Source: Candidatus Cloacimonadales bacterium
GTDB taxonomy: Bacteria; Cloacimonadota; Cloacimonadia; Cloacimonadales; JAFGVF01
DNA: 64,000 nucleotides
Reading direction: 5' to 3'
NCBI GenBank assembly: GCA_963663475.2
Contig: CAXXJV010000001.1
Location: 384,001-448,000, forward strand
Shown: positions 24,306 through 46,213 of the stretch, in pieces
Layout: each line of letters starts with the position of its first letter
How positions within the stretch are numbered: the first letter of the stretch is position 1
Position numbers and translations under genes: made by a program
The notes under the pieces: model-generated
Seen by the model: only the letters and a program-made list of their open reading frames with translations
What the model was told of the DNA's origin: nothing
The model's database searches: none

Positions 24306-24467
24306 GATTTAATTATTGTATGTTATAAAAAGTGATTTATCTTGTTTTAAATGCTGTTAAATAAACAATAAGGGAAGATAAAATAAATGAAAATTGTGTA
24401 AAATATTTATTCAGCTCAAGGATAATTGAGTTTATTTATATTTATCAAAAAAAAGAATGAGGGTAGA

Positions 24468-30482: not shown

Positions 30483-31709
30483 TTAATCTTCTTTTTCTAA
30501 ATCTAAACGACTTTTAATGATTTTTTCTGTTTCTATAGCAATCATTAACTCTTCATTAGTTTGAACTTTTAAAACTTTCACCTTACTATCTTCTGCTGAA
30601 ATATCTAAAGTTCCACCAACCCACTGATTGTTGTTCTTTTTATCAATCTTAACACCTAGATAATCCATATCTTCACAAACTAACTCACGTAAGATTGGCA
30701 TATTTTCACCAACACCACCTGTAAAGACTATTACATCTACACCATTCATTGCTGCAGCATAAGCTCCAATATATTTTTTGATTCTGTAAGCATAAACATC
30801 ATGAGCTCTAATTGCTCTATGATCATGGTCTTTAAGAATTCCATCTTCAATAGTTCTCATATCATTAGATAATTGAGACAAGCCTAACATACCAGATTTT
30901 TTATTGAGAAGATTATTAACTTCTGCAGAAGACATATCTAAATTTTCTTGTAAAAATAATGGAATAGCAGGATCTAAATCTCCACAACGTGTTCCCATTA
31001 CAAGTCCTTCAAGAGGAGTTAATCCCATTGAAGTATCTACAGAATCTCCATTCATAACTGCAGTAATAGAAGCACCATTTCCAACATGACAAGTAATTAT
31101 TTTTAAATCTGTAACAGCTTTACCTAAAAATTCAGCAGCTTTTAAAGAAACATACTTATGAGAAGTCCCATGGAATCCATATCTTCTTATTTTATGTTCA
31201 ACATAAAGTTCGTAAGGAATTGCATATAAATAAGCTTTTTCAGGCATTGTTTGGTGGAAAGCAGTATCAAAAACACCACATTGAGGTGTTCCTGGAAGAT
31301 ATTTATAAACAGCTTCAATACCTTTGATATTGGCAGGGTTATGTAAAGGAGCTAAATGAGTGCATTCTTTTAAAGCATGAACAACAGCATCATCAATATA
31401 AACTGATCCTGAGAAATATTCACCAGCATGAACAACCCTATGTCCTACAGCATCAATTTCTGCTGGAGAACTTATACAACCTTTGTTTTTATCTAATAAA
31501 AGATCTATGATATCTTTTAATCCTTGTTCATGATTAGCTATAACCATTTCTTTCTTTTTGAAAGTATGTCTTTCACTTTTATAAGTAAAAAGAGAAGTTT
31601 CATCGCCAATATTTTCAACAATACCTTCAGCTAAAAGTTGCTCATTTTCTTTGTTAATCAATTGATATTTGATTGATGAGCTACCACAATTTAATACTAA
31701 TATCTTCAT
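30483..31709 (-). CDS. ackA: Acetate kinase
   Basis: MKILVLNCGSSSIKY, GHRVVH, APLHNP, FDTAFH, YGFHGTSH, TSMGLTPLEG; start at ATG 31709 with GGAG RBS. Confidence 0.98.
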   Translation of the reverse strand: MKILVLNCGSSSIKYQLINKENEQLLAEGIVENIGDETSLFTYKSERHTFKKKEMVIANHEQGLKDIIDLLLDKNKGCISSPAEIDAVGHRVVHAGEYFSGSVYIDDAVVHALKECTHLAPLHNPANIKGIEAVYKYLPGTPQCGVFDTAFHQTMPEKAYLYAIPYELYVEHKIRRYGFHGTSHKYVSLKAAEFLGKAVTDLKIITCHVGNGASITAVMNGDSVDTSMGLTPLEGLVMGTRCGDLDPAIPLFLQENLDMSSAEVNNLLNKKSGMLGLSQLSNDMRTIEDGILKDHDHRAIRAHDVYAYRIKKYIGAYAAAMNGVDVIVFTGGVGENMPILRELVCEDMDYLGVKIDKKNNNQWVGGTLDISAEDSKVKVLKVQTNEELMIAIETEKIIKSRLDLEKED

Positions 31710-31792
31710 TATGTCTCCTATTCTCAATATAATTTATAATTATGGGTTCAGGATTTAAAATATTGGGATAGTGTCAAATAAAATTTGCTGAT

Positions 31793-31829
31793 AAAAAAGA
31801 AAAAGAGTAAGATAAATATCCTACTCTTT
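31793..31829 (-). terminator. Intrinsic terminator closing the seven-gene motor operon
   Basis: aagagtaggat/atcttactctt stem plus a T-rich tail on the minus strand. Confidence 0.7.
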
Positions 31830-31849: not shown

Positions 31850-33319
31850 TTACTCGAATCTCTGACTAATATTTATTGTATAAGTTCCAATATCAACTAA
31901 AGCTCGACCTTCAATAATTTTTTGTAGATTTGCAATAAAAGTCTTATCATTAATTGAACCTTGTCCTCTTATGATAGCCTTGATTATCTTATCATCTTTA
32001 AAAATTAGACGAAAATCTAACTTACCTCTGATAGTTTTACGTAGTTTATAGCTATTGAATTCTTGATTAATTCTAGGAAGAATAGCACTAGTAAACCACT
32101 CTCGAATCTGAGTCTCTTTTTCATTATCTGTAAGATCTCTTCTTTCGCGTTTAGTTCTTTCTATTTGCCTTTTCTCTAGTTCTGTATCATCAATTTCTGT
32201 AGATTCAATAGTTTCTACTTTTTCAAATCCATCACCTAGATTACTATTTAAAGTTCCAATATCAGCTGTTTCTCCAGAACCAATTCTGGCAGTTCTTCTA
32301 CCTCGAACATCACTAGCTCTAACACCTCTAGCAGACACAACTGCAGTATTTATTTGACTATCAGCTTGTCTTCCTAAGGCTTCAGCAATTCCACCGTAAT
32401 CTGAATCTGTATCAACATCGATATCAAAGGATGAGCTAGCCCTTGATGTACCTCTAAGTCCTCTAACTCTACTTCTAACCGCTAAGGCTGTACCTGTACC
32501 AGCTTGATCACCTCCACCTTCACCAACATTTTGATATCTTTCCTGTGAGTTAGCTTGAGCTGATCGTCTTCTCTGAGCAATTCTATCTTGAATTCTTTGA
32601 GCATCTGCTGCTCTTTGCTCAGCTTCTTCCTGAGCCTTGGCTTCAGCTTCTCCATCTCCCTCTTCTATAATTTCAGGTTCTTCATAAAATTCAGTAGTTT
32701 CCTGACTAATTTCAATTGGAGACTCAACTTGCATACTAACCATAATATTCTCTTCAGTTCTATCAAAGATTGTTTTTGCTCGGGAAGGAGTATAGGTCCA
32801 TCCCACAATTGAAGCAAAAATTATTATGGCTAAAATTACAGAGATAACAGTAAAGCGAGTTACTTTTTGCTGAGTAGATATAGCTGGCCAACGATTAAGG
32901 AGACTAACCAATTTCTTTTGTTCAGCAGTTAGCGGAGCAGGCTTTGGTATGGCTCTGAAGGAAATAGTAGTATTTTCATCAATTACTACTTCTCCTTCAT
33001 AATCTTCATTAAGATATAAACGATTATCTTTGAGCAGGCCTAGACTTTTAATTTCATCAAGAGATAAGTCTTTATCTCCCTTCTTAACACTAATAGAAAA
33101 TGATTTTAATAAATTAAAATAGTATTTCCCATTCTCATTTATTATTAAATCATGTTTCTTAGGGAATGAGGGATTGTATATCTGCCATAATAGACTTGGG
33201 TCCGAACCAATAGTCAGCTTTTTACCAATTAAAAAGTGTTTATTAGTTGTACCTTCAGAAAATGCGACAGAGAATTGCTTTCCCTTATACAGATATTTTA
33301 TTAGGAATCTTTTATTCAT
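31850..33319 (-). CDS. Bitopic protein with FHA-like N-terminus, one TM, coiled-coil/Gly-rich linker and TonB/AgmX-PglI-like C-terminus (GltG-like)
   Basis: LTIGSDP...HDLII beta-rich N-terminus, one TM (FTVISVILAIIIFASIVGW), charged helix, C-terminal RGKLDFRLIF; last gene after the exbB/exbD/exbD homologs. Confidence 0.6.
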   Translation of the reverse strand: MNKRFLIKYLYKGKQFSVAFSEGTTNKHFLIGKKLTIGSDPSLLWQIYNPSFPKKHDLIINENGKYYFNLLKSFSISVKKGDKDLSLDEIKSLGLLKDNRLYLNEDYEGEVVIDENTTISFRAIPKPAPLTAEQKKLVSLLNRWPAISTQQKVTRFTVISVILAIIIFASIVGWTYTPSRAKTIFDRTEENIMVSMQVESPIEISQETTEFYEEPEIIEEGDGEAEAKAQEEAEQRAADAQRIQDRIAQRRRSAQANSQERYQNVGEGGGDQAGTGTALAVRSRVRGLRGTSRASSSFDIDVDTDSDYGGIAEALGRQADSQINTAVVSARGVRASDVRGRRTARIGSGETADIGTLNSNLGDGFEKVETIESTEIDDTELEKRQIERTKRERRDLTDNEKETQIREWFTSAILPRINQEFNSYKLRKTIRGKLDFRLIFKDDKIIKAIIRGQGSINDKTFIANLQKIIEGRALVDIGTYTINISQRFE

Positions 33320-33915
33320 TATAAACCTCCTAAGCCGTAAGCTGATAGAAGTCTATAATAATCATCAGTTTCTCTTTTAACAAAATCTGTAGCAAAATAG
33401 AGTTTAAACTCTTTAGATTTTGATAGAGTTGTAACTGATGAGTTCTCATCATTCCAAATATCTATAAGCATTGATTTAATTGTGTTGATATATTTAAAAG
33501 GAGTGTTTCGGTGAGCTTTAACTCTCACTACAACAGGCTTATTGCCAATATTATCTCCAAGTATAGAATGAATAGTAACATCTAAAGCGCGAGTTTTAGC
33601 TGTCATCACTTCACTTGTAGTATTATTAATGTCTTCAAGCTTTGCTATAGCAATTTGCTCAGTTGAATTTTCACTCTTATAAGTTATTACACCTGAATCT
33701 CTTCCAGTATAACTTACATTAAGAGATATGATTTTACTATTATCTGCAATCTGTTCTTCAAAGAGTGCTTCTTCAAGTTCTACACCTTCAGGGACCAAAT
33801 CAGGGTCGGATGAAACATTGACCATAACAAATAATAACAAAATTGTTAAAATATCAATTAAAGAAGTAATACTCATCTGCGTAGTTTTTTTTGTTCTGTG
33901 TGCTACTGGGCTCAT
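33319..33915 (-). CDS. ExbD/TolR family protein (Asp retained)
   Basis: MSITSLIDILTILLLF TM motif; AHRNTPF periplasmic motif. Confidence 0.85.
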   Translation of the reverse strand: MSPVAHRTKKTTQMSITSLIDILTILLLFVMVNVSSDPDLVPEGVELEEALFEEQIADNSKIISLNVSYTGRDSGVITYKSENSTEQIAIAKLEDINNTTSEVMTAKTRALDVTIHSILGDNIGNKPVVVRVKAHRNTPFKYINTIKSMLIDIWNDENSSVTTLSKSKEFKLYFATDFVKRETDDYYRLLSAYGLGGL

Positions 33916-33926
33916 AGTTTACTTCC

Positions 33927-34502
33927 TTATTCGACTTCACCGATCATAATATCGGAAAATTTCATCTTTTTACATAAGTCCATTGTTTTTACAAAAACAC
34001 CAAACTTAACATAGTCTTTCGGTATTATAATAATAGGTAAGGACCTATTATCACCTTCAGAGATATTAGAATCACCATATTTATCTTCAAGCATAATTGT
34101 ACGGTAAGATTTCAAAGCCTCAGATAACTTACTAAAATCAGAAGAAAGAATTTGAGCATACTTTACATCAATTGTATCATTTTTACTGAAGGAGAATATT
34201 TCTCCCTCTTCATCAACATTGATAGTAAGTTCTAATTTTTTAATTCTTGCCTGATCTTTATCCTTTTTTTTATCTTCAGATGAAGCAGCTCCACCTGATG
34301 CGTTTGGATTAGTCAAATCCAAAGAAATATAAGCAATTGAGACTAAGACCACCATACTCAAGAGCATTGGAATCAGAGTCACGAATAAGTTCATAATCGG
34401 GACTAAATCCACTTCTTGGTGACCAGTGCTTCTATTGGCGTTTCTTCCCTGTGAAGGACTATAGATTTTATTTTTCTTTCCAACAGCAGGATTAATTCTC
34501 AT
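33927..34502 (-). CDS. ExbD/TolR family protein (Asp replaced by Asn)
   Basis: VDLVPIMNLFVTLIPMLL TM motif; IIIP..V.F..FV.TMD...F..I C-terminus. Confidence 0.85.
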   Translation of the reverse strand: MRINPAVGKKNKIYSPSQGRNANRSTGHQEVDLVPIMNLFVTLIPMLLSMVVLVSIAYISLDLTNPNASGGAASSEDKKKDKDQARIKKLELTINVDEEGEIFSFSKNDTIDVKYAQILSSDFSKLSEALKSYRTIMLEDKYGDSNISEGDNRSLPIIIIPKDYVKFGVFVKTMDLCKKMKFSDIMIGEVE

Positions 34503-34506
34503 GATA

Positions 34507-35328
34507 TTAGTCCTGTACTTGGTTATTGATCACATTCATTATTTTTACACTGTTAGCATCTAATTCATTAATAATCTTCTCAGCTCTAGTAGATAAGAAA
34601 CCTTTAATAAATTGTATAGCGATAGCACCAATAAGTCCTAAAGCTGTAGTACCCATCGCTTGTTTAATACCACCCATAAGAACTTCAGTTTCTGAGATAC
34701 CAGAGAAAGCCTGGATAAGACCCATGATAGTACCGAGAAGTCCTAGATAAGTTGATGATTGAGCAAGAAGGTCAAACCAGTGAAGACCTCTATCGATTTC
34801 AGGAATTGTTTGGTAAGCAGCTTCGTTAAAAGCATTTTGAACTTCTTCCTTTAAGCTGTCACCAGTTTTGCCTGAATTTTTAGCATCTTTATATGCTAAT
34901 AAACCGATACGATAAATCTGTCCCATTGTAGTTCTTTGAACAAGTTCAGCAGCAGCGATAGCTTCTTTAAGACTACCAGACTTGACTAAACCTTTAATTT
35001 TTAAATGGAATTTGTTACTATCAATTTTCTCTTTAACCATTAACTGGTAAAAGCGAATAAGTGCATAGAATACTGAAATTAAAAAGATACCTAGAATAAC
35101 CCAGGCAAAAACTCCAGATTCTGCAAAAACTCTGATTAAATTTGTTGGCCCAAGTTTTGCAATCCAATCTTCTGAATCTTCTTCAACTTCGGCTGGAACA
35201 GATTCTTCGTTAGCATTTTCTTGAGTTACTTGATTTTCATTGACGGCTACATCTCCGTTATCTTGGGCGAATAAAAACCCAAAACAAACAACTAAAAGTA
35301 ACATAACTAATAATGCAATCTTTCTCAT
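34507..35328 (-). CDS. MotA/TolQ/ExbB proton channel family protein
   Basis: TYLGLLGTIMGLIQAF and GGIKQAMGTTALGL motifs; N-terminal signal-like segment. Confidence 0.93.
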   Translation of the reverse strand: MRKIALLVMLLLVVCFGFLFAQDNGDVAVNENQVTQENANEESVPAEVEEDSEDWIAKLGPTNLIRVFAESGVFAWVILGIFLISVFYALIRFYQLMVKEKIDSNKFHLKIKGLVKSGSLKEAIAAAELVQRTTMGQIYRIGLLAYKDAKNSGKTGDSLKEEVQNAFNEAAYQTIPEIDRGLHWFDLLAQSSTYLGLLGTIMGLIQAFSGISETEVLMGGIKQAMGTTALGLIGAIAIQFIKGFLSTRAEKIINELDANSVKIMNVINNQVQD

Positions 35329-35356
35329 ACGATCTCCTATTTGGTTTTTATATAAT

Positions 35357-35632
35357 TTAGTATAAAACTCTATTAGATTTTAATAATTTTTCCATTATGT
35401 AGGTTTTAAAGATGAATTCTTCATCTGTTGACATTCTTGAACGAGTAATATCTATGTCAGGTAATCCAGAAGCAAATCTAGTAACTTGCTTAATTTCGAT
35501 AGAATCATAGATAGTTTCAACATTACCCTCAACCTCTATATAAACTGCATCATCATCTTGATTAGTCTGTGCATTACAAAGGTTAAAAGCAGAAACCAGA
35601 ATAATTACTAATATCAATATTACCTTTTTCAT
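35357..35632 (-). CDS. Small exported hypothetical protein (positional GltF analog)
   Basis: Signal peptide, acidic YIEVEGNVE segment; tightly packed in the operon. Confidence 0.6.
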   Translation of the reverse strand: MKKVILILVIILVSAFNLCNAQTNQDDDAVYIEVEGNVETIYDSIEIKQVTRFASGLPDIDITRSRMSTDEEFIFKTYIMEKLLKSNRVLY

Positions 35633-35634
35633 AA

Positions 35635-38600
35635 TTATCTCCTTTCATTTAGGGTTCGGATTTGTAGATCTATTAACAATCCGTTATCTTGCTTAGGGCT
35701 ATTGACCTCAAAAATAATCACATTTTTACCTTGGACATAGTAGTCTGGACTAATGTCTAGATATGGGGCATCAGGTGGAGCAAAGTAGTAATATTCTTCG
35801 AATCCAACCTGTTGACCGTTTAGATAGATATTAACAGTTTCATTAGCTAAGAAATATATAATACTATCAATAACTTGTCCAGTGACCTCAAATTCTTTAA
35901 CAAAGTATTTTACAGTTGGCTGATCTTCTATTACTTCTTCCTCAAGCATAGTTGAATCAGCTAGAGAAGCCACGTTAAGGGAATCAAGTCCTGTATTTGC
36001 CAACATAAGAGAATCTTCTAGTACTTGTGCAGATAAAGTATCTTGGATATTAAGGTCTGTTAGTAGATTATTTGTATCAACTTGCTTTGTTTCTTCTTGA
36101 AGGAGGTCTGTGTTTCTGTACCAAATTGGTATAGCCACAGAATTCTTGAATGCATCTAATTGGTAATAGTCCTCATCAATAGTGCCATAACTAACTTGAC
36201 CCCAGTTAGGATCATCAATTGTTAAAGTTTCTAATGAATCAGCCCCTAACCAAGTATTATCAGTGACAAGATTAAACTTAACAGCATTGTTGTGAATAAA
36301 GAGTTTTTCCTTATCATAAATCATAGCAAAGTTAAAACCGATATTGATATCATCAAATGACTTATTTACTACTTGCAATGAGATGGTATTTTGTCCCTTA
36401 GAGTAGTTCAAAGATGCAAGATTATTATCATTACTTAAACCACGATAAAGATATGGGAAAGCTGATAGAGAATCTTCAATTATCCCATCTGGTAAATATA
36501 AATTACTAATATCAACTAAATTATCATTAGCTTTGAAGCTGATAGAAACTTGATCATTGAACCAAAAATCTCCTTCCTCGACAAATCTGATTCTAGATGC
36601 CATAGGTAAGATAGGACATTCGAAGCTAGTTTCAATATGCAAAGAATCACCAGAAGGAATTGTGTAAATCATGAAATCTCTATATCCATCATTTATCTCA
36701 CTTTCTTGGATGGCAGAAAAATCTTTACGCATTGAAGCTAAGAAGGGAATTTCTATCTCCTCTTTAGCTACTACTTCTGAAACACCAACCTTTTGTAAGA
36801 AAGCTACAATTTCATCTGTCCCAGGTAGAGGATTTGTTATTCCATCGATATATGTTTCATAAATTGATTTTGCATACCCAATACCGATATTATCAAATTC
36901 AGTAGCATACTGGCCTCTAACTAGATAGATTTCATCTTCATAAGCATAAAGAATCTCATCTTGTTCCTCATAGGTTAAATCAGTTCTGCCATAGATGATA
37001 TTTTGATAATTGACATATTGTCCATTTGGTAAGGTAAGGAATTTAGTAATTTGATTATAAATTAAATCACCACTATATTTAGCAATTTTAAATTTAGCAT
37101 AATCCAACTTATAAATTTCTTCTCTCTTTTCATCAACAGTTAATAAATCACTATCAAAAACTCTTTGGGCATCTTGGTCTATCAGAGCAAATTGATTTTT
37201 CACTAATTCAACAAAGTTATTAATTCTCTTATTTTCACCATATAGGTGAGTATTCCATGTAGTAGCATTGTTAACCTTAATTCTTTCATTAACTTCTGCA
37301 GGAACATCTATAAATTCCATAAATTTGTTGTATCTAATTTCAAGATCAGCTAAGAATGCTTTCTTTTCTTGTTCTCTTTCATAATCAAGAGTGTATTTAT
37401 CATAGCGTTCAAGTGATGAAGGTATAGCAATTGTCTCAGCAGGAATACCATTTGCAGTAAAGGTTTCTGCTTGAGCTTTAAAGTCTTCGATTAGAGATAG
37501 CATTCTATCCCATTCTTTATTGCGATAGGCCTTTTTAATCTCCTCATCAATAGGAGATAATTGTTCAACTGCATATCTAGGATATCTTACTGATGTATTA
37601 TCCGTTGCGTAAAGTATCTTAATGTATTCAAGATAGTTTTCATCATCTTCTAGTTCTTCATAAAGACTACAAATAAGGTTGAGGATGTAAATTCTCTCAT
37701 AGTCAGGGAACTTCAAGTTAAAAGCAACCCATTCTTGGACTTCATCTTCTTTAGATAAAGTTCTACATTTCATCTCAATAGCATTGAAATAATAATCTTC
37801 AGCCTTTAAGTCTAGAGAAGAAATATCTAATTTATCTCCTTCTTGGCTAGCTCTTTCATAGATTTCCAGCATCTTTTCAGAAGCTAATAAAGGATCATAT
37901 GTAGTAAGAGTTGAATCTTGGACAACACCTAATCTGCTTATTAAAATAACAAATGTCTGCTGGTCATTAGGGAATCTTCCCATAAATGTATCTTCAATTT
38001 CTTGTGTTCTTTCTTTATAACCAAGAGAATCTGTTATCGAGATAGCAGCACTATAGTTGTTCCATGCTTCTTCAATTGTTTTACTTGCATCACCTTGTTC
38101 AAGTAAACGACTAACAGCAGTATCGTAATCACCACCAGCAGCATAGAGAGCTATTGCATTTCTACGTAATTCAGCTTTCTTAGCTTCATCAATAACTGAA
38201 GACTGAAGAACTTTTTCCATTTCTTGAGCAGCTTTTACCTTATCTTCCTGGTTATCTGTGCTTTGAAGCTGGCTAATTTTGGCTGATCTATTATTAAAGA
38301 TTTCTTTTTCATACTCTGTTTTTTTCTCATCATCAACAAACTCTTTAGCCTTAGCGAAATACTCAATGGAAGAATCAATATCACCGTCAGCTTTATATAA
38401 TTCAGCAAGATTACGGAAGATACTTTCTTTATATTCATCTGAGATATTTAAGTCATTACAAGCTAAGAAGTCTGCTTTAGCTCCATCATTATCCCCCATT
38501 CTCCTCTTAGTTAAACCTCTATAATATAAAAGTTTATAAATAGTTTGGTCTTTATCGGGTATATCTGATGTGGATAGGAAATCATAGAATCTATTTGCAA

Positions 38601-41600
38601 TACTTATGTACTGGCTCCTTCTTTCACTTTTAATATCTTCAATTTCTTGAGTACTATAGTTTAAGGTATCAAAATTAGTAGTATCTGTTATTACAGAAAC
38701 ATTATAAGCCCAACTGTAAGCATTTTGCTCTAAATCAGTCCTAATGTCAGTTTCAGGATTTCTATCAATGAAGTTATAAACCTTTTCTATACCATAATTA
38801 TAAGCAGTAGTATCCTGTTGAGATCTCACATATTTCACAATAGCACTAATATTATTTTGATCATATATTTTAAGACGTTGAGCCCTAATTTCTTCATCAA
38901 ATCCAACATAATTGGCATATTCCTCTGTTGCATTAGTGAAGGACATTATATTTTCCATGTTAGGATTTGCATCTACTTTACTATATAAGTCTGGTAAGAT
39001 GAAATCATCAAAACCTTTTTGAATAACCTTAACATATGGACTTAAATCTTGATTCTTATTGTACTCATACCAATCACTAGTATAGCCATATCTTGCAATA
39101 GCTTTTCGATATTCTCTTTCACCTCTGATATCTAAAGAGTCTCCTAGTTCAAGAGAATAACGACTCATAGTTGTAATGATTGAATCTGTATAGACAGGGT
39201 TTGTAATAGCATATAAATCTACTCTAGACCTAGCGTCATAAAGAGTAATAATATCCTCAAATTCATCAAAGATTCTTTTCTTCTCTAATAGTTTTTGAAA
39301 AATATTATTAGCAGTGGATTCATCATAGAGGGTGAAGAGCTTATTCATAACATAATCTTTTGACTTCAGTTCAACATTTGGCAAGTAGTCAACTTCATTT
39401 AATGAATAAACGATTATGTCTTCAGCAGCACTATACTTATTCTTTTGATATTCAGTAAACATATCCTTATCTGCAAGCAAGATTTCTAAATCTGCAATAG
39501 CTGCTTCATAGTTTTGAATAGCCATTTTGTGCCATGCTCTTTGGAATAAAGCTTCATACTTTTGATCAAGACTACCAAGTGCATATATTTGGTCATAAAC
39601 TTTGATAGAAATACCGACATACTTTGCTGGGTCATCAGCATCAACAGCAATATCAAAATATAATTTAGCAAGACGTAACATTGATTCAATTTGATACTTA
39701 CTGTTAACATCCTTACTAAGTTCTAAGTAGTTATCAATTACTTCTCTATATTTACTTACTGATTTTGTGACAGATTCTGGTCGAGGTTGGTAGAAATAGT
39801 TTTCATCTTTCATTTTTTCTTCACGAAGATTAGCTATTTCTAAATCTAAAATTTGATTTTTATAATAAGCCAAATTGTAGAGGACCACATCTTTCTGTGG
39901 GAAATCAGGGTTTAATTCAAGAACCTTTTGATAGTTATTATAGATTAAATTATAGTTGTTACTATATATAATAGTAGCAATTTCAGCTAAATTAAAGTAT
40001 AGTTTAAAATTATTATTGAAGTTATTATTCTTGAAGATAAAAGCATTTGTTCTATTATATATGCTTTCATACTGGTCTTCATATTGGCCATATTCAGCCT
40101 CAGAAAGAGCTAAAGAATCACGATCTGCTTCTTCTAAACGACTTTTATAATTCTCGTTTAATTTGCGGAAATCTAAATCTAAAGCTATGAAATCAACATA
40201 AGTTTGTTGTTCATTTTTTATTTGATTAAATTTATTAAAAGAGTTAGAGTAAATTGATATTTTACCATCTAACTCTTTAAATTTATCCTTAACTTCTGCT
40301 TCAGCTTTAGCTGCAACAGTCTCATAATATGTATCTATAACTTTTCTTCTTTTAACTTCTAACTTACTTTCTTGAGCTAAAAATTCTTCTACTTTCTCTT
40401 CAGCTAATTCTTGTTTTTCAGATAAGTTTGGGAACTCAGCTAAATCAAACTTAGCCTTAACTCTTATCTCATCTAAATTCTCTTGTTCATCCTTAAGAAG
40501 CTGGCGTAGTTCGCTATTTTTTTGAGGATAAGATCTTGTTTTATCTACTAAATTAGAAAGATTAACAATATATTTCTTCTTGAGATAGAGTTGATTAGCA
40601 TACCAATAGGCTCTCAAGAATTGATCATCATTAGGACTTTCGATATCACTAAGAAGTTCTTCAGTAATATCAAGTAGGTAATCTTCCTCTTTATTTGCCC
40701 TGTCTCGATTTGCGATAGCGATTAATTCGTCTTTAGGTCTATTTCTATATTGATCAATAAGATCAAGTTCAACAAAATAGGTTTCAGTTCTTTCAATGAA
40801 GGTTAGTTCGAGTTCTTTGATAAGCTGAACAGATCTAGGATCTAAGAAAGAAATCTTTTCTTCTAAAACTAATTGGTTTGCAAGAACTGCTTCTTCCTTA
40901 CTAGTTATTTGCTCTCTTAAAATATTTTTTCTAGTTTCTTCAGTTTCCATTAAGAGGTTATTTCTTAAAGATCTAATTTCATTCATGAGATTTCTATTCT
41001 GAAGTAAACTAGTAAAATAATCATCTACTCTTGCTTGGTAACTAGTCATTAAGTTTGAAGCACTATCTCCATTATTAAGTTCATGGTCAATCAGTATTAA
41101 GTTGTAAAGAGTCTGAACATAGAAATCATTAGCATTTTTTGATTCAAGTAATCTTTCAAAAGTGGTTTTTGCCTTTTGGAGATTACCCGCTTTTCTGTGA
41201 GCAATACCTATTTCATAGATAACTTCACTTATGTTATCATTGTTCAATTGGCTATATGCTTGATAATAAGAAACAGCTGTTTCGGGATCTCCGTAATGAG
41301 AAAACAATCTTGCAATAGAGAGTAGAACAAAGTCATAGTAAGGTGTATCTGGCGAAAAGTTGTTTTGTAAAACATCAAAAATAGCTGTAGCTTCCTCAAT
41401 TCTTCCTTCAGAAAGAGAAATGAGAGCTAAAGTCGCAGTTGATCTGAGCGTATATTCAGTATCAATAGCAGCTTCTTCCAGATATTTTTGAGCATCATTA
41501 AATCTACCGATGTTGTAGAGAGATTGTCCATATCTGAACTTTTGTGATGCTAATTCAAATTCAGGATACTCTTCAACTAATTCCACATATTCTTGATCTT

Positions 41601-42078
41601 TTCCTGATTTAAATAGAGCTAATTTCCAGTAACGAATGGTTACGTTTTTACGGTTACTGTCTGGATATCTTCTTACTAAATCATTTGCTTTGAGAGTTAC
41701 CATATCCCAATCTTGAGAATAAACAGCTTTTTTGCAATCGAGAAATAGCAAATCGTCTTGTAGGCTTGCTACATTACGATAGGCCTTAAACATCATACTT
41801 CTGATGAAATTAGAATATTCTCGATCATTCTCTTTTATAAGAGTGAAGTAGGCTTCTTCATCTTCGGCAAATTTATCTTCTATTCCAGATATATTATTAG
41901 CTCTAAGCAAGTCATTTACTTGAGTAATTCTCTCTTCTTCAATAGCATTACGAATCTCGTCTAAACTGGCAACATCTCCCCCATTATCTGCAGGAGAAGT
42001 TTGAGAGTAAAGAGTTAGTAATGATAAGTTTATAAGAAGAAGGATCAACAACATCTTCTTTATACACATACTACCCAC
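35635..42078 (-). CDS. Giant exported TPR-like/coiled-coil protein with C-terminal beta-sandwich domain
   Basis: Signal peptide, many TPR-like units (YGQSLYNIGRFNDA, YEIGIAHRKAGNLQKA, ALFQRAWHKMAIQNYEAA), C-terminal ANETVNIYLNGQQVG..GKNVI; exact start uncertain. Confidence 0.8.
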   Translation of the reverse strand: MGSMCIKKMLLILLLINLSLLTLYSQTSPADNGGDVASLDEIRNAIEEERITQVNDLLRANNISGIEDKFAEDEEAYFTLIKENDREYSNFIRSMMFKAYRNVASLQDDLLFLDCKKAVYSQDWDMVTLKANDLVRRYPDSNRKNVTIRYWKLALFKSGKDQEYVELVEEYPEFELASQKFRYGQSLYNIGRFNDAQKYLEEAAIDTEYTLRSTATLALISLSEGRIEEATAIFDVLQNNFSPDTPYYDFVLLSIARLFSHYGDPETAVSYYQAYSQLNNDNISEVIYEIGIAHRKAGNLQKAKTTFERLLESKNANDFYVQTLYNLILIDHELNNGDSASNLMTSYQARVDDYFTSLLQNRNLMNEIRSLRNNLLMETEETRKNILREQITSKEEAVLANQLVLEEKISFLDPRSVQLIKELELTFIERTETYFVELDLIDQYRNRPKDELIAIANRDRANKEEDYLLDITEELLSDIESPNDDQFLRAYWYANQLYLKKKYIVNLSNLVDKTRSYPQKNSELRQLLKDEQENLDEIRVKAKFDLAEFPNLSEKQELAEEKVEEFLAQESKLEVKRRKVIDTYYETVAAKAEAEVKDKFKELDGKISIYSNSFNKFNQIKNEQQTYVDFIALDLDFRKLNENYKSRLEEADRDSLALSEAEYGQYEDQYESIYNRTNAFIFKNNNFNNNFKLYFNLAEIATIIYSNNYNLIYNNYQKVLELNPDFPQKDVVLYNLAYYKNQILDLEIANLREEKMKDENYFYQPRPESVTKSVSKYREVIDNYLELSKDVNSKYQIESMLRLAKLYFDIAVDADDPAKYVGISIKVYDQIYALGSLDQKYEALFQRAWHKMAIQNYEAAIADLEILLADKDMFTEYQKNKYSAAEDIIVYSLNEVDYLPNVELKSKDYVMNKLFTLYDESTANNIFQKLLEKKRIFDEFEDIITLYDARSRVDLYAITNPVYTDSIITTMSRYSLELGDSLDIRGEREYRKAIARYGYTSDWYEYNKNQDLSPYVKVIQKGFDDFILPDLYSKVDANPNMENIMSFTNATEEYANYVGFDEEIRAQRLKIYDQNNISAIVKYVRSQQDTTAYNYGIEKVYNFIDRNPETDIRTDLEQNAYSWAYNVSVITDTTNFDTLNYSTQEIEDIKSERRSQYISIANRFYDFLSTSDIPDKDQTIYKLLYYRGLTKRRMGDNDGAKADFLACNDLNISDEYKESIFRNLAELYKADGDIDSSIEYFAKAKEFVDDEKKTEYEKEIFNNRSAKISQLQSTDNQEDKVKAAQEMEKVLQSSVIDEAKKAELRRNAIALYAAGGDYDTAVSRLLEQGDASKTIEEAWNNYSAAISITDSLGYKERTQEIEDTFMGRFPNDQQTFVILISRLGVVQDSTLTTYDPLLASEKMLEIYERASQEGDKLDISSLDLKAEDYYFNAIEMKCRTLSKEDEVQEWVAFNLKFPDYERIYILNLICSLYEELEDDENYLEYIKILYATDNTSVRYPRYAVEQLSPIDEEIKKAYRNKEWDRMLSLIEDFKAQAETFTANGIPAETIAIPSSLERYDKYTLDYEREQEKKAFLADLEIRYNKFMEFIDVPAEVNERIKVNNATTWNTHLYGENKRINNFVELVKNQFALIDQDAQRVFDSDLLTVDEKREEIYKLDYAKFKIAKYSGDLIYNQITKFLTLPNGQYVNYQNIIYGRTDLTYEEQDEILYAYEDEIYLVRGQYATEFDNIGIGYAKSIYETYIDGITNPLPGTDEIVAFLQKVGVSEVVAKEEIEIPFLASMRKDFSAIQESEINDGYRDFMIYTIPSGDSLHIETSFECPILPMASRIRFVEEGDFWFNDQVSISFKANDNLVDISNLYLPDGIIEDSLSAFPYLYRGLSNDNNLASLNYSKGQNTISLQVVNKSFDDINIGFNFAMIYDKEKLFIHNNAVKFNLVTDNTWLGADSLETLTIDDPNWGQVSYGTIDEDYYQLDAFKNSVAIPIWYRNTDLLQEETKQVDTNNLLTDLNIQDTLSAQVLEDSLMLANTGLDSLNVASLADSTMLEEEVIEDQPTVKYFVKEFEVTGQVIDSIIYFLANETVNIYLNGQQVGFEEYYYFAPPDAPYLDISPDYYVQGKNVIIFEVNSPKQDNGLLIDLQIRTLNERR

Positions 42079-42103
42079 TTATCAAATTATTAAGTTAATT
42101 AAT

Positions 42104-43108
42104 TTACTCTAATTCTTCTAACTCATCAATTAGGTTATCTAACTCTGACTGTTTTTTCAATTCAGCTTCTCTTAATGCTCTAATTTGTTCTAAGATACTA
42201 GAACCAGTACCTTGGTTTGTATTAGTTTCAAGGTTCTGTCTTTGGGTTCTAACTCTTTCAGGATTTGCTTCAAAAACACCTTGTTTAGTAGCTTTAGAGT
42301 CTGCCCAACGTGTAATTCTGTATTGGATATTGAAAGCCATTTTTAGGTTGTCTTGATTTTCCTTAATAAACTCTTCAATTTCAATAATAGAGTATTGAAG
42401 GGCTAGGTTATTCCAGTTATATTTAGCACCGAAGTTAATGGCATGACCACTTTGTTCAGCGAAAACACTGAAATTGTTCTTAGGGAAAAGAGCAGTTGGA
42501 TAGTATTCAAAAGTTCCAAAGAGTCCGTTAAAGTCTTGAGCAAGATCTCTTTGTCCTACGAAACGATTAGTTCCGAGTCCAACGGTAACATATAGTTGCA
42601 TATCTCCTAAAATGTTAACATCTCTAAGAGCCCATGATTTAGTTGCAGCAACGTAGAAAGAGTTCTTTTCATAAGTAGTTGCTTGTGGGATATCTGCCCA
42701 ATCTTCAAAGTCTTCGTCTTCATAATCAACAGCGTCAGTACCAACTTTTGAGAAGAGGTTATCGACACCTAGGGTAATACCTGGGTATTCAAAAGTTTCT
42801 TGAACTAATTGATATTTGAAGTTAGCATAAAAAACTTCATCTCCTGTATATACAAAACCTAATTCTGCTCTATCGAAAAGTCCGTATTTAGCTTGAATAA
42901 CGTAATTGTATTCATAATCAGCAGGGTCAGTAGATCCTTGTTCTAAACCGTCTCTTAAATATGATGCAAAATTGACTGAGATTTGATTTGCAGGCATAAC
43001 AAAACCGTCAGGCACATCAATATTGCCTAGGGTTCCAAATGGAACAGCTACAAGAGCATTAATACAAAGTAAAACACTCATAATAAGTAAAATTTTTTCT
43101 CTCATCAC
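42104..43108 (-). CDS. Probable outer-membrane beta-barrel protein (YjbH-like) with C-terminal coiled coil
   Basis: Signal peptide, G.IDVP, alternating beta-strands with aromatics (KYGLFDRAELG, ANFKYQL, INFGAKYNW), helical tail. Confidence 0.6.
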   Translation of the reverse strand: MMREKILLIMSVLLCINALVAVPFGTLGNIDVPDGFVMPANQISVNFASYLRDGLEQGSTDPADYEYNYVIQAKYGLFDRAELGFVYTGDEVFYANFKYQLVQETFEYPGITLGVDNLFSKVGTDAVDYEDEDFEDWADIPQATTYEKNSFYVAATKSWALRDVNILGDMQLYVTVGLGTNRFVGQRDLAQDFNGLFGTFEYYPTALFPKNNFSVFAEQSGHAINFGAKYNWNNLALQYSIIEIEEFIKENQDNLKMAFNIQYRITRWADSKATKQGVFEANPERVRTQRQNLETNTNQGTGSSILEQIRALREAELKKQSELDNLIDELEELE

Positions 43109-43235
43109 AATTTCTCCTTTATGTACACTTAATCGTTAATAATCAAGTTTTTTTGAATTTTCTTTTTTTAGTCATTTTCACTCATCTCTAATTAAATGAA
43201 TTGACAAAATAGAGTCAAGCTTTTTTTTTCATTTT

Positions 43236-43628
43236 ATGAATAAATCTAACAAGAACAAAATATTTGGTAAATTAGGTGAAAGTTTAGCAAGTAGTTATTT
43301 AGCAAAAAATGGCTTTGTAATAGTAGAGAAGAACTTTCGTTGTTTTTCTGGCGAGATAGATATTATTGCACAAAAAGAAGATTTATTAATAATTGTTGAG
43401 GTCAAATCTAGAAAAAATATTGATAGTGATGAGACCATGCTATCTATTACAAAGTCTAAGCAAAGAAAAATAAGCCGAGCTACTGCTGATTTCATAGATA
43501 AGAACCAGCAGTATTCGGACAATTTTATCAGGTTTGATATAATAACAGTTATCAAGCATCCTTACTTGGATGAGTATTCAATCAATCATTATGAAGATGC
43601 TTTCTCTTATATTGCAGATGAAAGGTAA
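43236..43628 (+). CDS. yraN: YraN family endonuclease-like protein (UPF0102)
   Basis: G..GE..A..YL, NFR..GEIDIIA, VEVKSR, RFD. Confidence 0.93.
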   Translation: MNKSNKNKIFGKLGESLASSYLAKNGFVIVEKNFRCFSGEIDIIAQKEDLLIIVEVKSRKNIDSDETMLSITKSKQRKISRATADFIDKNQQYSDNFIRFDIITVIKHPYLDEYSINHYEDAFSYIADER

Positions 43629-43725
43629 GCAGGAATCCATAATTATTCTTGGTAAAAACACAGAATTATGAATGATTTATTTTTTCCTATCTTAAAAAAT
43701 CTTCATCCAGCAGTGTGTAATTCTT

Positions 43726-45114
43726 TTATTTAAGTCTTTCTACATCAAAATCTTGACCGAGGTAGAATTTATAATCTGCAGAGACATTAATATCGTTATC
43801 ATTATAAACATATATTAACTTATGCCCGTTGTTCATATTTACATCAAAGAAGGTGTAGCTAGCTAATTTTTTTGTAGCATATCTCCAGATTTCGTATTCC
43901 TTATCATTGAAAACAGCTCTTCTTTCCAATAGAGCGTCAGCATCATACTTATCAGTTGCATCTAACTCGCCAACCATAAATTTTTCAATATCATCAGGAG
44001 GACCGTACAAGATATAAATTTTGCCTCTATCAGAAGCCCAGCCTGGTTTATGATGGGAGAATTTTTGATTTGAGTAATCAATTCTTTCTTTTAGGGTAGA
44101 GATAAGCATTTCAGGGGTGATAGCCTGGGAATTAGCATATCTTTCCCAGAATTTATTTATTTCTTGTCTTTTCCTAGAGGAAGTGAAGGCATCCCAAGAA
44201 CTTTGAGTATTAGAATAGCCAAAATATCTCATAAGCTTAAATTCATCATCGCGATTATCAAATATGTAATAAGTTTCACCAGGGTAATCTGAGATTGAGA
44301 AATCAGTATAAGTCCTATTGTTTTCAACTTGGTTAAGTGATTTTACGGTAACATAATAGATGCCTTTAGGTAACTTTTGAATGTTAATAGCTTGGGTAAT
44401 GTTAGCTGTTTCTGAATTACTTAATCCACTTTTCTGCATAAAATCGACTTGCTGATCAAAAGAATCTTTTACTTCAATTATGTAGTCATATTTCCACTGA
44501 GATTTGGAGTGTCTTGTTAGACCTTGTAATTGAAAGTAGGCATAAAGACTATCAATAGTCTCTTTATAAAATATTCTTGAAGGGTTGGATTTATAAAGTT
44601 TTTTACCTCTATACATATATTTAAACTTATCATTAACTTGTGTGCTGACATAGTCATTTAGTTCAACATCACTAATATAGCGGTCATTAATTAGCTTAAG
44701 GTCTTTTTGGAAGATATAGGTATCTTTACTTACCATATCAATAAATTTCATTTCCAAGGTATTGCCCGAGCTGGGGTAATCAAAGCTATATCTATCGATA
44801 TGTTCACGAGTTTTGGATTCAATATCTTTTAGATCAGAGACAATAATTTGTTCAGCAAAAGCCTCCTGGTGGAGTATTTTATTACTATTGTATATTTTAA
44901 CTTCAATTCTTAACCCTGCAATAGCTCCACTCTTATCTTCGTTAATTTTAAAAGTAAGGTCTTGATATTTCACAGAATAGTTAACATCAATAATGGTGCG
45001 TTGATTTGCATCAAAAAAGTTAAGACCTTCAACACTAATATTCAAGTTCTTTGCCCAAGACATTGCTATCATTGATAATAGCACTAATAAAATGAATGTT
45101 TTTTTAGAAATCAT
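43726..45114 (-). CDS. GWxTD domain protein (variant GWASD)
   Basis: Signal peptide from ATG 45114; FW..RI.Y.N..F....GWASDRGKIYILYGPPD..EIWRY. Confidence 0.88.
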   Translation of the reverse strand: MISKKTFILLVLLSMIAMSWAKNLNISVEGLNFFDANQRTIIDVNYSVKYQDLTFKINEDKSGAIAGLRIEVKIYNSNKILHQEAFAEQIIVSDLKDIESKTREHIDRYSFDYPSSGNTLEMKFIDMVSKDTYIFQKDLKLINDRYISDVELNDYVSTQVNDKFKYMYRGKKLYKSNPSRIFYKETIDSLYAYFQLQGLTRHSKSQWKYDYIIEVKDSFDQQVDFMQKSGLSNSETANITQAINIQKLPKGIYYVTVKSLNQVENNRTYTDFSISDYPGETYYIFDNRDDEFKLMRYFGYSNTQSSWDAFTSSRKRQEINKFWERYANSQAITPEMLISTLKERIDYSNQKFSHHKPGWASDRGKIYILYGPPDDIEKFMVGELDATDKYDADALLERRAVFNDKEYEIWRYATKKLASYTFFDVNMNNGHKLIYVYNDNDINVSADYKFYLGQDFDVERLK

Positions 45115-46213
45115 ACTCTTCTTCTTTGTTGTATAGTTTGTAGTCTTCGATTCTAGATCGATCATAAAAAATGAAAGTTTTATTTAACCGATAATAGTGC
45201 CAGGTTTGCGTTGGATATCTCCCTACAGGATTATTATCAACACTTATTTCATCAGGTTCACCAAACTTTATATAAATCCTACCACGATCAGTTTGCCAAC
45301 CTTGCTTATAACGGTGAACTGAGAACTTTCTGTCTGCCTGTAAAATCCTATTATAGAAAAGATCTTGCAAACTAGAATTCTGAGATTCTTTAGGATTGTT
45401 AGAAGCCCAAAATTGCAATACTTTCTCAGAATCGGTCCAATTCTTATTACGATTAATTTCCTTCCAAGTTTTATCATTAACAATATATTTTATTTGACTG
45501 AGTTGGTCTTCCCAGCTGTATTTCTTCTGAAAACTATTAAGATATTTTTCCAGTTTAAGTTCTGATTGATATAGGTCATTAGCCAGTTTAAACTCAATAT
45601 AATTGTTAGTAAAATCTTCTATAAGGTAGTCAGCTTTAAGTTTTGTTAAGAGTTCCTTACTTGTAGGAAGTTCACTTACCTTTCTGTTATTTTTAGATTC
45701 ACTAACAAATTTTAATGTCTGAGTTTCAGTTTCATACAACTGGTAGAGATAGATATTATTGGAAGTTTCAATATCTTCCCAAGAAAGGACTTCCATATAG
45801 ATATTTTCCATTTTTTTCACTAAGTACAAAGCTGAAAAGTGTTGATTTTTTTCTACAAAAAACTCAAATTTTTCTTCTTTTTTATCATTTCTTAGCTTGT
45901 TGTTTAATTTTAGAAAAGCTGTATATTGGCCAGGTTCTACTTGTGTTTTCAAGAAGAATATCAAACGTTGGTTATTCTCAAGTTTATCAGACTTTAATTC
46001 AATATCTTCTTTTGCTAAATAGACTGATTTATTATTCTCATCAAAGAGCTCGAAAATCATCCGATAAGCAATTTCACCTTTCTTACTAAAAAGATCATTG
46101 CTGTCTATTCTCAGAGTAAGAAGAGTCTCATCACCTACCAATTGCGGGCTAAGATCAGCTGCAAATAAGAGATTGACTAGCAAGAAAAAGATTATCATCA
46201 AAGCTACTTTCAT
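45104..46213 (-). CDS. GWxTD domain protein
   Basis: Signal peptide; GWQTDRGRIYIKFGEPD..TWHY. Confidence 0.9.
   Translation of the reverse strand: MKVALMIIFFLLVNLLFAADLSPQLVGDETLLTLRIDSNDLFSKKGEIAYRMIFELFDENNKSVYLAKEDIELKSDKLENNQRLIFFLKTQVEPGQYTAFLKLNNKLRNDKKEEKFEFFVEKNQHFSALYLVKKMENIYMEVLSWEDIETSNNIYLYQLYETETQTLKFVSESKNNRKVSELPTSKELLTKLKADYLIEDFTNNYIEFKLANDLYQSELKLEKYLNSFQKKYSWEDQLSQIKYIVNDKTWKEINRNKNWTDSEKVLQFWASNNPKESQNSSLQDLFYNRILQADRKFSVHRYKQGWQTDRGRIYIKFGEPDEISVDNNPVGRYPTQTWHYYRLNKTFIFYDRSRIEDYKLYNKEEEYDF

Follow-up and report, generated by a model that had tools for sequence, protein, structure and literature searches.

A seven-gene cluster of a Cloacimonadales bacterium as a probable version of the Agl-Glt/Nfs-type core

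The described system closest to the locus considered here, a seven-gene cluster in a 64,000-nucleotide stretch of DNA (the window) from a Candidatus Cloacimonadales bacterium (assembly GCA_963663475.2, contig CAXXJV010000001.1, positions 384,001-448,000; source genome of 3.30 Mb in two contigs), is the core complex of the myxobacterial Agl-Glt machinery, comprising aglR, aglQ, aglS, gltD, gltE, gltG, and gltC (Luciano et al. 2011, PMC3169522). According to that report, the core complex also forms one cluster in several Gammaproteobacteria, one betaproteobacterium, Geobacter, and Fibrobacter succinogenes; outside myxobacteria its function was unknown, and it was judged insufficient for motility, being found mostly in non-gliders. 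Table 1 of the same report gives lengths of 1191 aa for GltD, 471 aa for GltE, 4132 aa for GltI, and 89 aa for GltF, the latter with a signal peptide, and describes GltG as a protein of 640 aa with an FHA domain (26-90), a transmembrane helix, and a TonB_C domain (570-637). In the AlphaFold model of Cambillau et al. (2025, PMC11761067), a central FHA domain of GltG (190-329), located just before the helix, binds the cytoplasmic face of AglR5-AglQ-AglS, the outer FHA domain binds the giant cytoplasmic GltI, and the TonB-like C-terminal domain, beyond a disordered periplasmic linker of ~124 residues, contacts GltD and GltF.

Likeness to the Agl-Glt core

The seven genes, encoding OM334, TPR2147, S91, ExbB273, ExbD191, ExbD198, and G489 (Table 1), are likely (probability about 0.6) to be a Cloacimonadota version of the Agl-Glt/Nfs-type core, driven by the proton motive force and transmitting mechanical work from the inner to the outer membrane. 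Because the tree of the channel subunit is not decisive, the case rests on that tree together with a gap in profile scores, the signature of the ExbD pair, synteny, and a profile match to GltG. A first-pass annotation of the window, made from the letters and a list of open reading frames (ORFs), had likened the genes to the Agl-Glt core in a non-myxobacterium; the ExbD order and signature, the GltG match, and synteny bear the likeness out, and its novelty falls away, as the core was already reported from Gamma- and Betaproteobacteria, Geobacter, and Fibrobacter, so that the kind of system is already known (PMC3169522). The Cloacimonadota form is a distinct variant with a minimal GltG, a fused TPR protein, and its own barrel and small protein. 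The titles and abstract beginnings covered by a literature search held no text tying an Agl-Glt-type core to Cloacimonadota, and a survey of periplasmic force transducers (PMC12204202) mentions neither GltG nor "Cloacimon".

As in the Agl-Glt core, one TolQ/ExbB-like gene is combined with two different TolR/ExbD-like genes, and a single-pass transducer carries an FHA-like domain beside its helix, a long disordered linker, and a TonB-like C-terminal domain. Shared as well are one or more large exported TPR proteins and, at the position of GltF, an exported protein of ~90 aa; all genes lie in a single cluster, as in the non-myxobacterial core complexes. Unlike in the Agl-Glt core, the TPR genes are fused into one, encoding 2147 aa with a beta-rich C-terminal part, and the cluster includes a lineage-specific barrel, OM334. 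There is no further TPR gene inside the cluster, and no equivalents of GltC, GltI/J, GltA/B/H/K, or CglB were identified by Pfam on the window proteins, a search that compared no named references.

Table 1. Features of the cluster, with positions in the window
Feature	Positions	Strand	ORF length (aa)	Description
OM334	42104-43108	minus	334	Exported; predicted ~12-stranded outer-membrane beta-barrel with a C-terminal periplasmic helix, residues 305-333
TPR2147	35635-42078	minus	2147	Exported TPR/helical scaffold; C-terminal ~450 aa non-TPR, beta-rich
S91	35357-35632	minus	91	Exported protein; extreme C-terminal motif KSN[KR]xLY
ExbB273	34507-35328	minus	273	MotA/TolQ/ExbB-family channel subunit; cleavable-looking signal peptide, acidic N-terminal extension
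ExbD191	33927-34502	minus	191	First ExbD/TolR paralog; Pfam ExbD 2.4e-9
ExbD198	33319-33915	minus	198	Second ExbD/TolR paralog; Pfam ExbD 3e-6
G489	31850-33319	minus	489	FHA-fold domain 1-125, transmembrane helix 149-175, disordered linker ~196-391, TonB/TolA-like C-terminal domain 394-489
Intrinsic-terminator-like hairpin	31802-31829	minus		12-pair stem followed by a T-run; ~20 nt past the G489 stop codon

The transducer G489 provides a link to GltG. Although G489 itself has no significant Pfam family, its AlphaFold2 model (28-sequence alignment) shows a confident all-beta domain at 1-125, the membrane helix, and a confident C-terminal domain at 398-489, joined by a long, charged linker of low confidence. 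The top 50 Foldseek matches of the model in the Protein Data Bank (PDB) were all FHA domains (best 5a8i, E 1e-4), and a VIA-align search over 48,161 chains gave FHA matches with Z scores as high as 8.3. With residues 394-489, the latter method returned C-terminal domains of TolA and TonB, namely TolA 2x9a_B (Z 6.0), TonB 1xx3 (Z 5.8), 4g7x_B (Z 5.6), and 9ddz (Z 5.6). The earlier description of the 489-aa protein as FHA-like, membrane-spanning, and TonB-like is therefore upheld at the level of fold, and Pfam found weak TonB_C matches in 5 of 28 family members. Phosphothreonine-binding FHA domains usually carry the pattern GR...SxxH; the conserved residues of the G489 domain are GS... and PKKH, unlike that pattern, which suggests an FHA domain that has degenerated to a structural role.

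In a profile comparison (hhalign), the G489 family matched seven Myxococcota GltG-like proteins with 96.7% probability (E 4e-10), with columns 10-169 of G489, covering the FHA-like domain and helix, aligned to columns 151-304 of the GltG-like proteins, covering their second FHA-like domain and helix. The counterpart of the FHA-like part of G489 is thus the membrane-proximal, second FHA-like domain of GltG and not the canonical N-terminal one, and G489 looks like a minimal GltG without the outer canonical FHA; such a protein, with the motor-proximal FHA-like domain only, points to the ancestral part of GltG. The architecture of the compared proteins is illustrated by a minus-strand cluster of a 9.5-Mb Myxococcota genome, which encodes TPR proteins of at least 1078 aa and of 480 aa, a 95-aa ORF, a 607-aa GltG-like protein with Pfam FHA at 29-93 (9e-17) and TonB_C at 539-604, a TPR protein of 531 aa, and an ORF of at least 3411 aa, lengths that parallel those of GltD/E/F/G/I in Table 1 of Luciano et al. 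(PMC3169522). The Cloacimonadota G489 profile detected no GltG-like gene in either of the Myxococcota genomes G151 and G152 and matched only the C-terminal domain in a Fibrobacter genome; a search for related loci that used only G489 gave no match.

Outside the window, a 727-aa lipoprotein with a VWA domain (lipobox FIGC; contig 1, ~1534440-1536623, minus strand) ends in ~100 residues that share 65-67% identity with the TonB-like C-terminal domain of G489, and a neighbouring VWA lipoprotein of 751 aa has no such end. Similar second matches were seen in two further genomes of the genus (G046 and G084), so that three of the six genus genomes searched carry one. The 727-aa lipoprotein recalls CglB, the VWA adhesin of the Agl-Glt machine (PMC9946355), a resemblance drawn by analogy. 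In the PVC (Planctomycetes-Verrucomicrobia-Chlamydiae) group, vWA-ended force transducers are encoded in a like order of TPR, tolQ-like, two unlike tolR genes, and then the transducer (PMC12204202); there the transducer itself ends in the vWA domain, whereas here the domain belongs to a separate lipoprotein, which has its C-terminal domain in common with G489.

Motor subunits and their distribution

The motor genes had been annotated as a TolQ/ExbB homolog and two distinct TolR/ExbD homologs, and Pfam agrees, with a MotA_ExbB match for ExbB273 (1.7e-21) and ExbD matches for the pair. The two ExbD proteins differ at the proton-binding site: ExbD191 has Asn38 in the column of the proton-binding Asp (TolR D23, ExbD D25), whereas ExbD198 keeps a transmembrane Asp (D21) in the TolR D23 column. 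The first paralog has Asn in 17/17 Cloacimonadota loci, and the second has Asp in all 17 as well as in 147/147 other rows; among 153 non-Cloacimonadota rows of the first paralog, Asn occurs in 125, Asp in 16, Ser in 8, Ala in 2, and a gap in 2, these column counts outside the phylum including overlapping loci. The Asn/Asp split is common to several phyla, while both ExbDs of the genome's own Ton system and the TolR-like protein have Asp throughout. Judged from the residues, the pair suggests a heterodimeric axle with one proton site. A review gives Asp for both AglQ and AglS (PMC9389320), in contrast to the Asn of the first ExbD here, and the asymmetry makes the AglQ/AglS stoichiometry directly testable.

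For ExbB273, the NCBIfam matches lie far below the cut-offs of the respective families (tolQ, 60.7 vs 221 bits; exbB, 40.5 vs 206 bits), and for five of the seven cluster proteins the NCBIfam scan gave no family. A maximum-likelihood tree of 135 ExbB rows (IQ-TREE quick mode, LG+G4, with MotA as outgroup) was built from the Cloacimonadota cluster, the 68 loci from outside the phylum, one quarter of the Myxococcota/Bradymonadia loci, every MotA_ExbB paralog in four further genomes, the genome's own paralogs, and Escherichia coli TolQ and ExbB. The 17 Cloacimonadota rows were monophyletic, with a support of 100 in the Shimodaira-Hasegawa-like approximate likelihood ratio test (SH-aLRT), and fell inside a 109-row clade of cluster-linked ExbBs (SH-aLRT 98), where they adjoin a Bdellovibrionota group with weak support (89). 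A separate clade of 21 rows (88) united E. coli TolQ and ExbB with two of the genome's own paralogs (L001 and L002) and 17 paralogs from other genomes; the third own paralog (L003), the MotA of a locus on contig 2, lay outside both clades near the outgroup. Against a hidden Markov model (HMM) of the Cloacimonadota ExbB, cluster-linked relatives scored 120-185 bits and canonical paralogs 18-89 bits. Taken alone, the ExbB tree would favour the cluster-linked placement, a result that is supportive, not decisive.

Relatives of G489 were found in 113 of 151 sampled Cloacimonadota genomes, among them, by family, 8/8 (f1), 68/69 (f3), 19/31 (f5), 0/6 (f7), 0/6 (f12), and 1/13 (f13), to name six examples, and the cluster is single-copy. 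When 17 loci from different genera and families were compared, of which one (L031) is incomplete, the remaining 16, all holding ExbB, showed the TPR gene(s), ExbB, two ExbD genes, and G489 in constant order, confirming that gene order is conserved in relatives. OM334 lies upstream in 15 of these 16 loci (it is missing from L030), and a small S91-like ORF with a signal peptide stands between the TPR gene and ExbB in 16/16. The TPR gene occurs either as one of ~2000-2150 aa or, in other families of the phylum, as two of ~675 and ~1300-1740 aa.

Beyond the phylum, an ExbB alignment scan covered 185,579 species genomes, and the counts given here come from its best 80 loci, of which 12 are Cloacimonadota, including one titled "uncultured bacterium" (L041, 43% identity), and the next 68 are 27-35% identical. 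The latter belong to Halobacteriovoraceae/Bacteriovoracaceae, Bdellovibrionales, Myxococcales/Bradymonadia, Woeseiaceae, Chromatiales, Cellvibrionaceae (including the cultured Marinimicrobium locisalis), Fibrobacterota/Fibrobacter, KSB1, Caldithrix (Calditrichota), Cytophagia, Gemmatimonadota, Nitrospirae (Nitrospirota), Pelobacter, and others. Searched with HMMs built from the Cloacimonadota proteins, 62/68 outside loci showed ExbB followed by the ExbD191 type and then the ExbD198 type, and four of the six exceptions end at a contig end. A G489-like gene follows in 38 of the 56 loci with at least 2.6 kb of room downstream, and TPR genes precede in 39 of the 55 with at least 4 kb upstream. Altogether 42 G489-like ORFs were collected outside the phylum, and Pfam on 31 of them gave TonB_C in 23 (18 at gathering score) and FHA only in a 640-aa protein (L048), with a YscD-like FHA in another locus (L051). 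The gammaproteobacterial and Fibrobacter forms, of ~310-350 aa, match the G489 profile from the helix onward, and the forms of KSB1, Cytophagia, and Caldithrix (437-469 aa) match the N-terminal domain too.

The system family seems to reach far beyond the taxa named in 2011, when Gamma- and Betaproteobacteria, Geobacter, and Fibrobacter were listed; it is near-universal in the uncultured phylum Cloacimonadota and is represented in sediment RNA libraries. An ExbB of the same type is also encoded by metagenome-assembled genomes (MAGs) whose titles give Spirochaetales, Sumerlaeota, or UBP6, and by many rumen or gut MAGs titled "bacterium" (L172, L176, L179, L180, L183, and L188-L190).

Outer components, possible action, and competing readings

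The claim that the first gene encodes an outer-membrane barrel-like protein is borne out by modelling. The AlphaFold2 model of OM334 has 12 strands and the helix (predicted local distance difference test 69, predicted template-modelling score 0.65), and Foldseek returned 43 PDB matches at E <= 0.001; all rows listed but one, a chloroplast TOC-TIC subunit, are outer-membrane or designed transmembrane barrels. The best fold matches are FapF (5o68, 1e-5), the COG4313 channel (4rl8), KdgM (4fqe), and a designed 12-strand barrel (9fdg, TMt 0.62). By sequence, OM334 has no significant Pfam family and a single NCBIfam match below cut-off (E 0.0056); an alignment of 16 sequences shows a conserved motif, PFxTLGNIxVPDGYVLP, directly after the signal peptide. 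FapF, the barrel of amyloid secretion, is 12-stranded and has a periplasmic coiled-coil segment. Its structures 5o65, 5o67, and 5o68 match OM334 at Foldseek E 1e-5 to 6e-5, with low TM-scores (0.29-0.40) and 9-11% identity; unlike in FapF, the helix of OM334 is C-terminal, and there are no Fap genes near the cluster.

TPR2147 has a signal-peptide-like N-terminus and is assigned to TPR families by Pfam. Its beta-rich C-terminal part gave weak matches in a PDB sequence profile search (carbohydrate esterase 9h4u, E 0.0012; lectins, E 0.12), which are weak hints of a possible carbohydrate-binding-type module, and the C-terminal 508 aa found no usable match in an ESM Atlas search. S91 has no significant Pfam family; an ending of the type KSN[KR]xLY occurs in 14 of 17 aligned rows, and the other three end in NKWL[KE]E[LS]K. 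A complex prediction for residues 392-489 of G489 with mature S91 (22-91) yielded no verdict (score 0.00) and is neutral with regard to binding.

We infer the following mechanism from the published Agl-Glt model and from the motors with known structures, ExbBD, TolQR, and MotAB. A pentameric ring of ExbB273 would surround a heterodimer of ExbD191 and ExbD198 that has a single proton-carrying Asp, and the helix and membrane-proximal FHA-like domain of G489 would dock on this ring, as in the AlphaFold model of GltG with AglR. Proton flow would drive rotation or pulling, which would be relayed along the ~200-residue disordered linker spanning the periplasm to the TonB-like domain, and this TonB/TolA-like end may engage an outer assembly, namely TPR2147, S91, the OM334 barrel at its N-terminal motif, or several of these. 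As for the output, an action on the outer membrane or cell surface is tentatively favoured, in which a component such as a polymer or adhesin would be pulled, gated, or moved; TonB-dependent nutrient import and cell gliding are less likely. Such a cluster would leave the basic picture of Ton/Tol-like motors unchanged.

Several observations weigh against reading the cluster as an Agl-Glt-type core. The assignment to the class of Ton/Tol/Mot 5:2 motors is made by analogy, and the 5:2 stoichiometry, the contacts, and the output are all inferred. The link to Agl-Glt runs via MAG clusters labelled Myxococcales/Bradymonadia that have the published architecture, not via named Myxococcus xanthus sequences. 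Unlike GltG, G489 lacks the canonical N-terminal FHA, as Pfam FHA (PF00498) was found in 0/28 family members at E <= 1. The SHLS motif includes the helix His of TonB and TolA, and helix 149-175 of G489 has no His; SHLS is the motor-binding motif of those proteins (PMC12204202). TPR2147 shows no demonstrable sequence homology to GltD/E: in pairwise BLASTP against two Myxococcota GltD-like proteins the E values of 0.021 and 0.014 were not significant. A Myxococcales GltD-like query did match proteins of ~1920-2047 aa, of unchecked origin, at E 8.8e-46 to 1.3e-14. S91 is not detectably related to GltF either, there being no significant similarity to the 95-aa ORF at the GltF position of the Myxococcota cluster (hhalign probability 11%). 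Relatives of OM334 were detected in just 3/68 outside loci: L053 and L087 (Gemmatimonadota), and weakly L047. The comparison set of relatives was chosen by likeness to the Cloacimonadota profile via one peptide pattern, which favours clustering, and in the tree the stem branch of the Cloacimonadota ExbB is long (1.11). The separation of ExbB273 from canonical TolQ/ExbB, on which the first-pass annotation depended, is only partly sustained: the tree places it apart, but an approximately unbiased (AU) test did not reject joining the Cloacimonadota rows with canonical TolQ/ExbB (p = 0.361, delta lnL 8.5).

The genome has other motors, and since separate Ton and TolQ-TolR loci exist, the cluster is an additional system and not the organism's Ton or Tol. 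The canonical Ton locus encodes a TonB-dependent receptor, ExbB, ExbD, ExbD, and TonB; at another locus (C1:1698000-1716000, L237), TolQ-like (201 aa) and TolR-like (137 aa) genes are followed by a 268-aa protein with no Pfam match and an S..H helix motif, which is probably TolA-like. Outside the window, a third locus (C2:154000-172000, L239) encodes a 478-aa FliG_C-domain protein, MotA, MotB (OmpA and plug), an AAA_22 ATPase, a Wzz/tyrosine-kinase-like protein, a LytR/SLBB protein, and a Wza-type exporter, and resembles a stator-like motor coupled to polysaccharide export.

A specialised Ton-like import system, in which ExbB/ExbD/TonB-like proteins energise uptake via OM334 and TPR2147 acts as periplasmic chaperone or scaffold, appears unlikely. 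The motor family and the periplasm-spanning linker are those of Ton, the C-terminal fold of G489 is TonB/TolA-like, and TonB_C matches occur in its relatives, yet G489 also has a cytoplasmic FHA-like domain and a helix without His and is accompanied by a giant TPR partner, features foreign to Ton. The ExbB-ExbD-ExbD-TonB layout is that of the genome's canonical Ton locus too, but that locus has a receptor and Asp in every ExbD, whereas the cluster has no TonB-dependent receptor partner and one ExbD without Asp. The motif following the signal peptide of OM334 could act as a TonB box; OM334, however, has no Plug or TonB-dependent-receptor domain, its fold matches are small barrels of 8 to 14 strands, and it is absent from nearly all homologous clusters outside the phylum. 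Pfam and NCBIfam found no TonB-dependent receptor, TolB, or Pal in the cluster, as the first-pass annotation had claimed, and none adjoining it.

A Tol-Pal-like role in envelope maintenance or division, with outer-membrane tethering and TPR2147 acting like CpoB/YbgF, is about equally improbable. No TolB reaches the NCBIfam cut-off (TIGR02800) anywhere in the genome (best 47.9 vs 343 bits), but the TolQ-TolR locus with its TolA-like 268-aa protein is separate from the cluster, and Pfam found no Pal/OmpA-like peptidoglycan-binding domain in the cluster. ExbB273 has tolQ as its best NCBIfam match, albeit far below cut-off, and the C-terminal fold of G489 resembles TolA (2x9a_B). One source labels related TPR proteins "TolA-binding protein", and the TPR partner is reminiscent of CpoB; CpoB is about 260 aa long, however, and TPR2147 is ~8x that length. 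A single-copy, phylum-wide cluster fits a housekeeping role, and yet G489 was not found in 38/151 genomes of the phylum, including 6/6 of f7 and 6/6 of f12, and homologous clusters occur in Gammaproteobacteria, which have complete Tol-Pal systems.

A machine for true gliding motility or focal adhesion of the Myxococcus kind is very unlikely, for despite the homology to the Agl-Glt core and a VWA lipoprotein with a G489-like C-terminal domain that recalls CglB (PMC9946355), the core complex was judged insufficient for motility and occurs mostly in non-gliders (PMC3169522), Pfam identified no GltI/J-like, FHA-binding giant cytoplasmic TPR, MglA/AglZ-like, or GltA/B/H/K-like genes in the window, and G489 lacks the canonical N-terminal FHA through which GltG binds GltI in the published model (PMC11761067).

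Beyond the reading of the cluster as a Cloacimonadota version of the Agl-Glt/Nfs-type core, a bolder and rather doubtful proposal is that it belongs to an ancient and widespread fourth branch of Ton/Tol-type motors with an obligate heterodimeric Asn/Asp axle, which in Cloacimonadota would pull a FapF-like barrel via a GltG-like tether and TPR scaffold and thereby export or move a polymer or adhesin, with the VWA lipoprotein as a client or competitor at the same site. If this were true, the pairing of VWA adhesin and motor in myxobacterial focal adhesions would predate gliding.

Gene layout, regulatory signals, and flanking genes

The seven minus-strand genes lie at the positions first given (31850-43108) and are as tightly packed as described there, with gaps in the order from OM334 to G489 of 25, 2, 28, 4, 11, and -1 nt, the last pair overlapping by 1 nt. 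A terminator had been noted downstream of the last gene, and a 12-pair hairpin with a T-run is indeed present (31829-31802 on the minus strand). Upstream, the TTGACT hexamer noted before exists (43218-43213, minus strand), but a sigma-70 scan listed no complete promoter at this place, and the region contains no more promoter-like sites than expected by chance (54, vs 61.3 +/- 8.3 in shuffles); because of both results, the promoter claim is reduced to the hexamer.

RNA contigs were available from three metatranscriptome runs of one marine-sediment study, and such contigs show no single transcript, strand, or level. One run (X5) had depth in 27/30 bins across the cluster, with contigs crossing the junctions of TPR2147 and OM334 (40293-43058) and of G489 and ExbD198 (32141-33339), and further contigs at 33900-34500, 35573-36477, and 36629-37980. 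No RNA contig lies at 43112-44000 and almost none over ackA (30854-31761), both of which are covered by a DNA run; this fits transcript ends at these places and was not used as evidence.

According to Pfam and NCBIfam, the flanking genes are ackA, yraN, two GWxTD genes, and dnaE. In most loci of the phylum, the two GWxTD-domain genes (43726-46213, minus strand) are close neighbours of the cluster on its upstream side, with a gap of ~400-670 nt in relatives, and in this window a divergent yraN (43236-43628, plus strand) separates them from the cluster. The rest of the window consists of housekeeping genes and type IX secretion cargo-type genes, among them a gene for a protein with a type IX secretion C-terminal sorting domain (22659-24305, plus strand), followed by one for a 1307-aa C25-family peptidase (24426-28349). 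A PorV-like gene adjoins the Ton locus elsewhere in the genome, and the organism appears to have type IX secretion.

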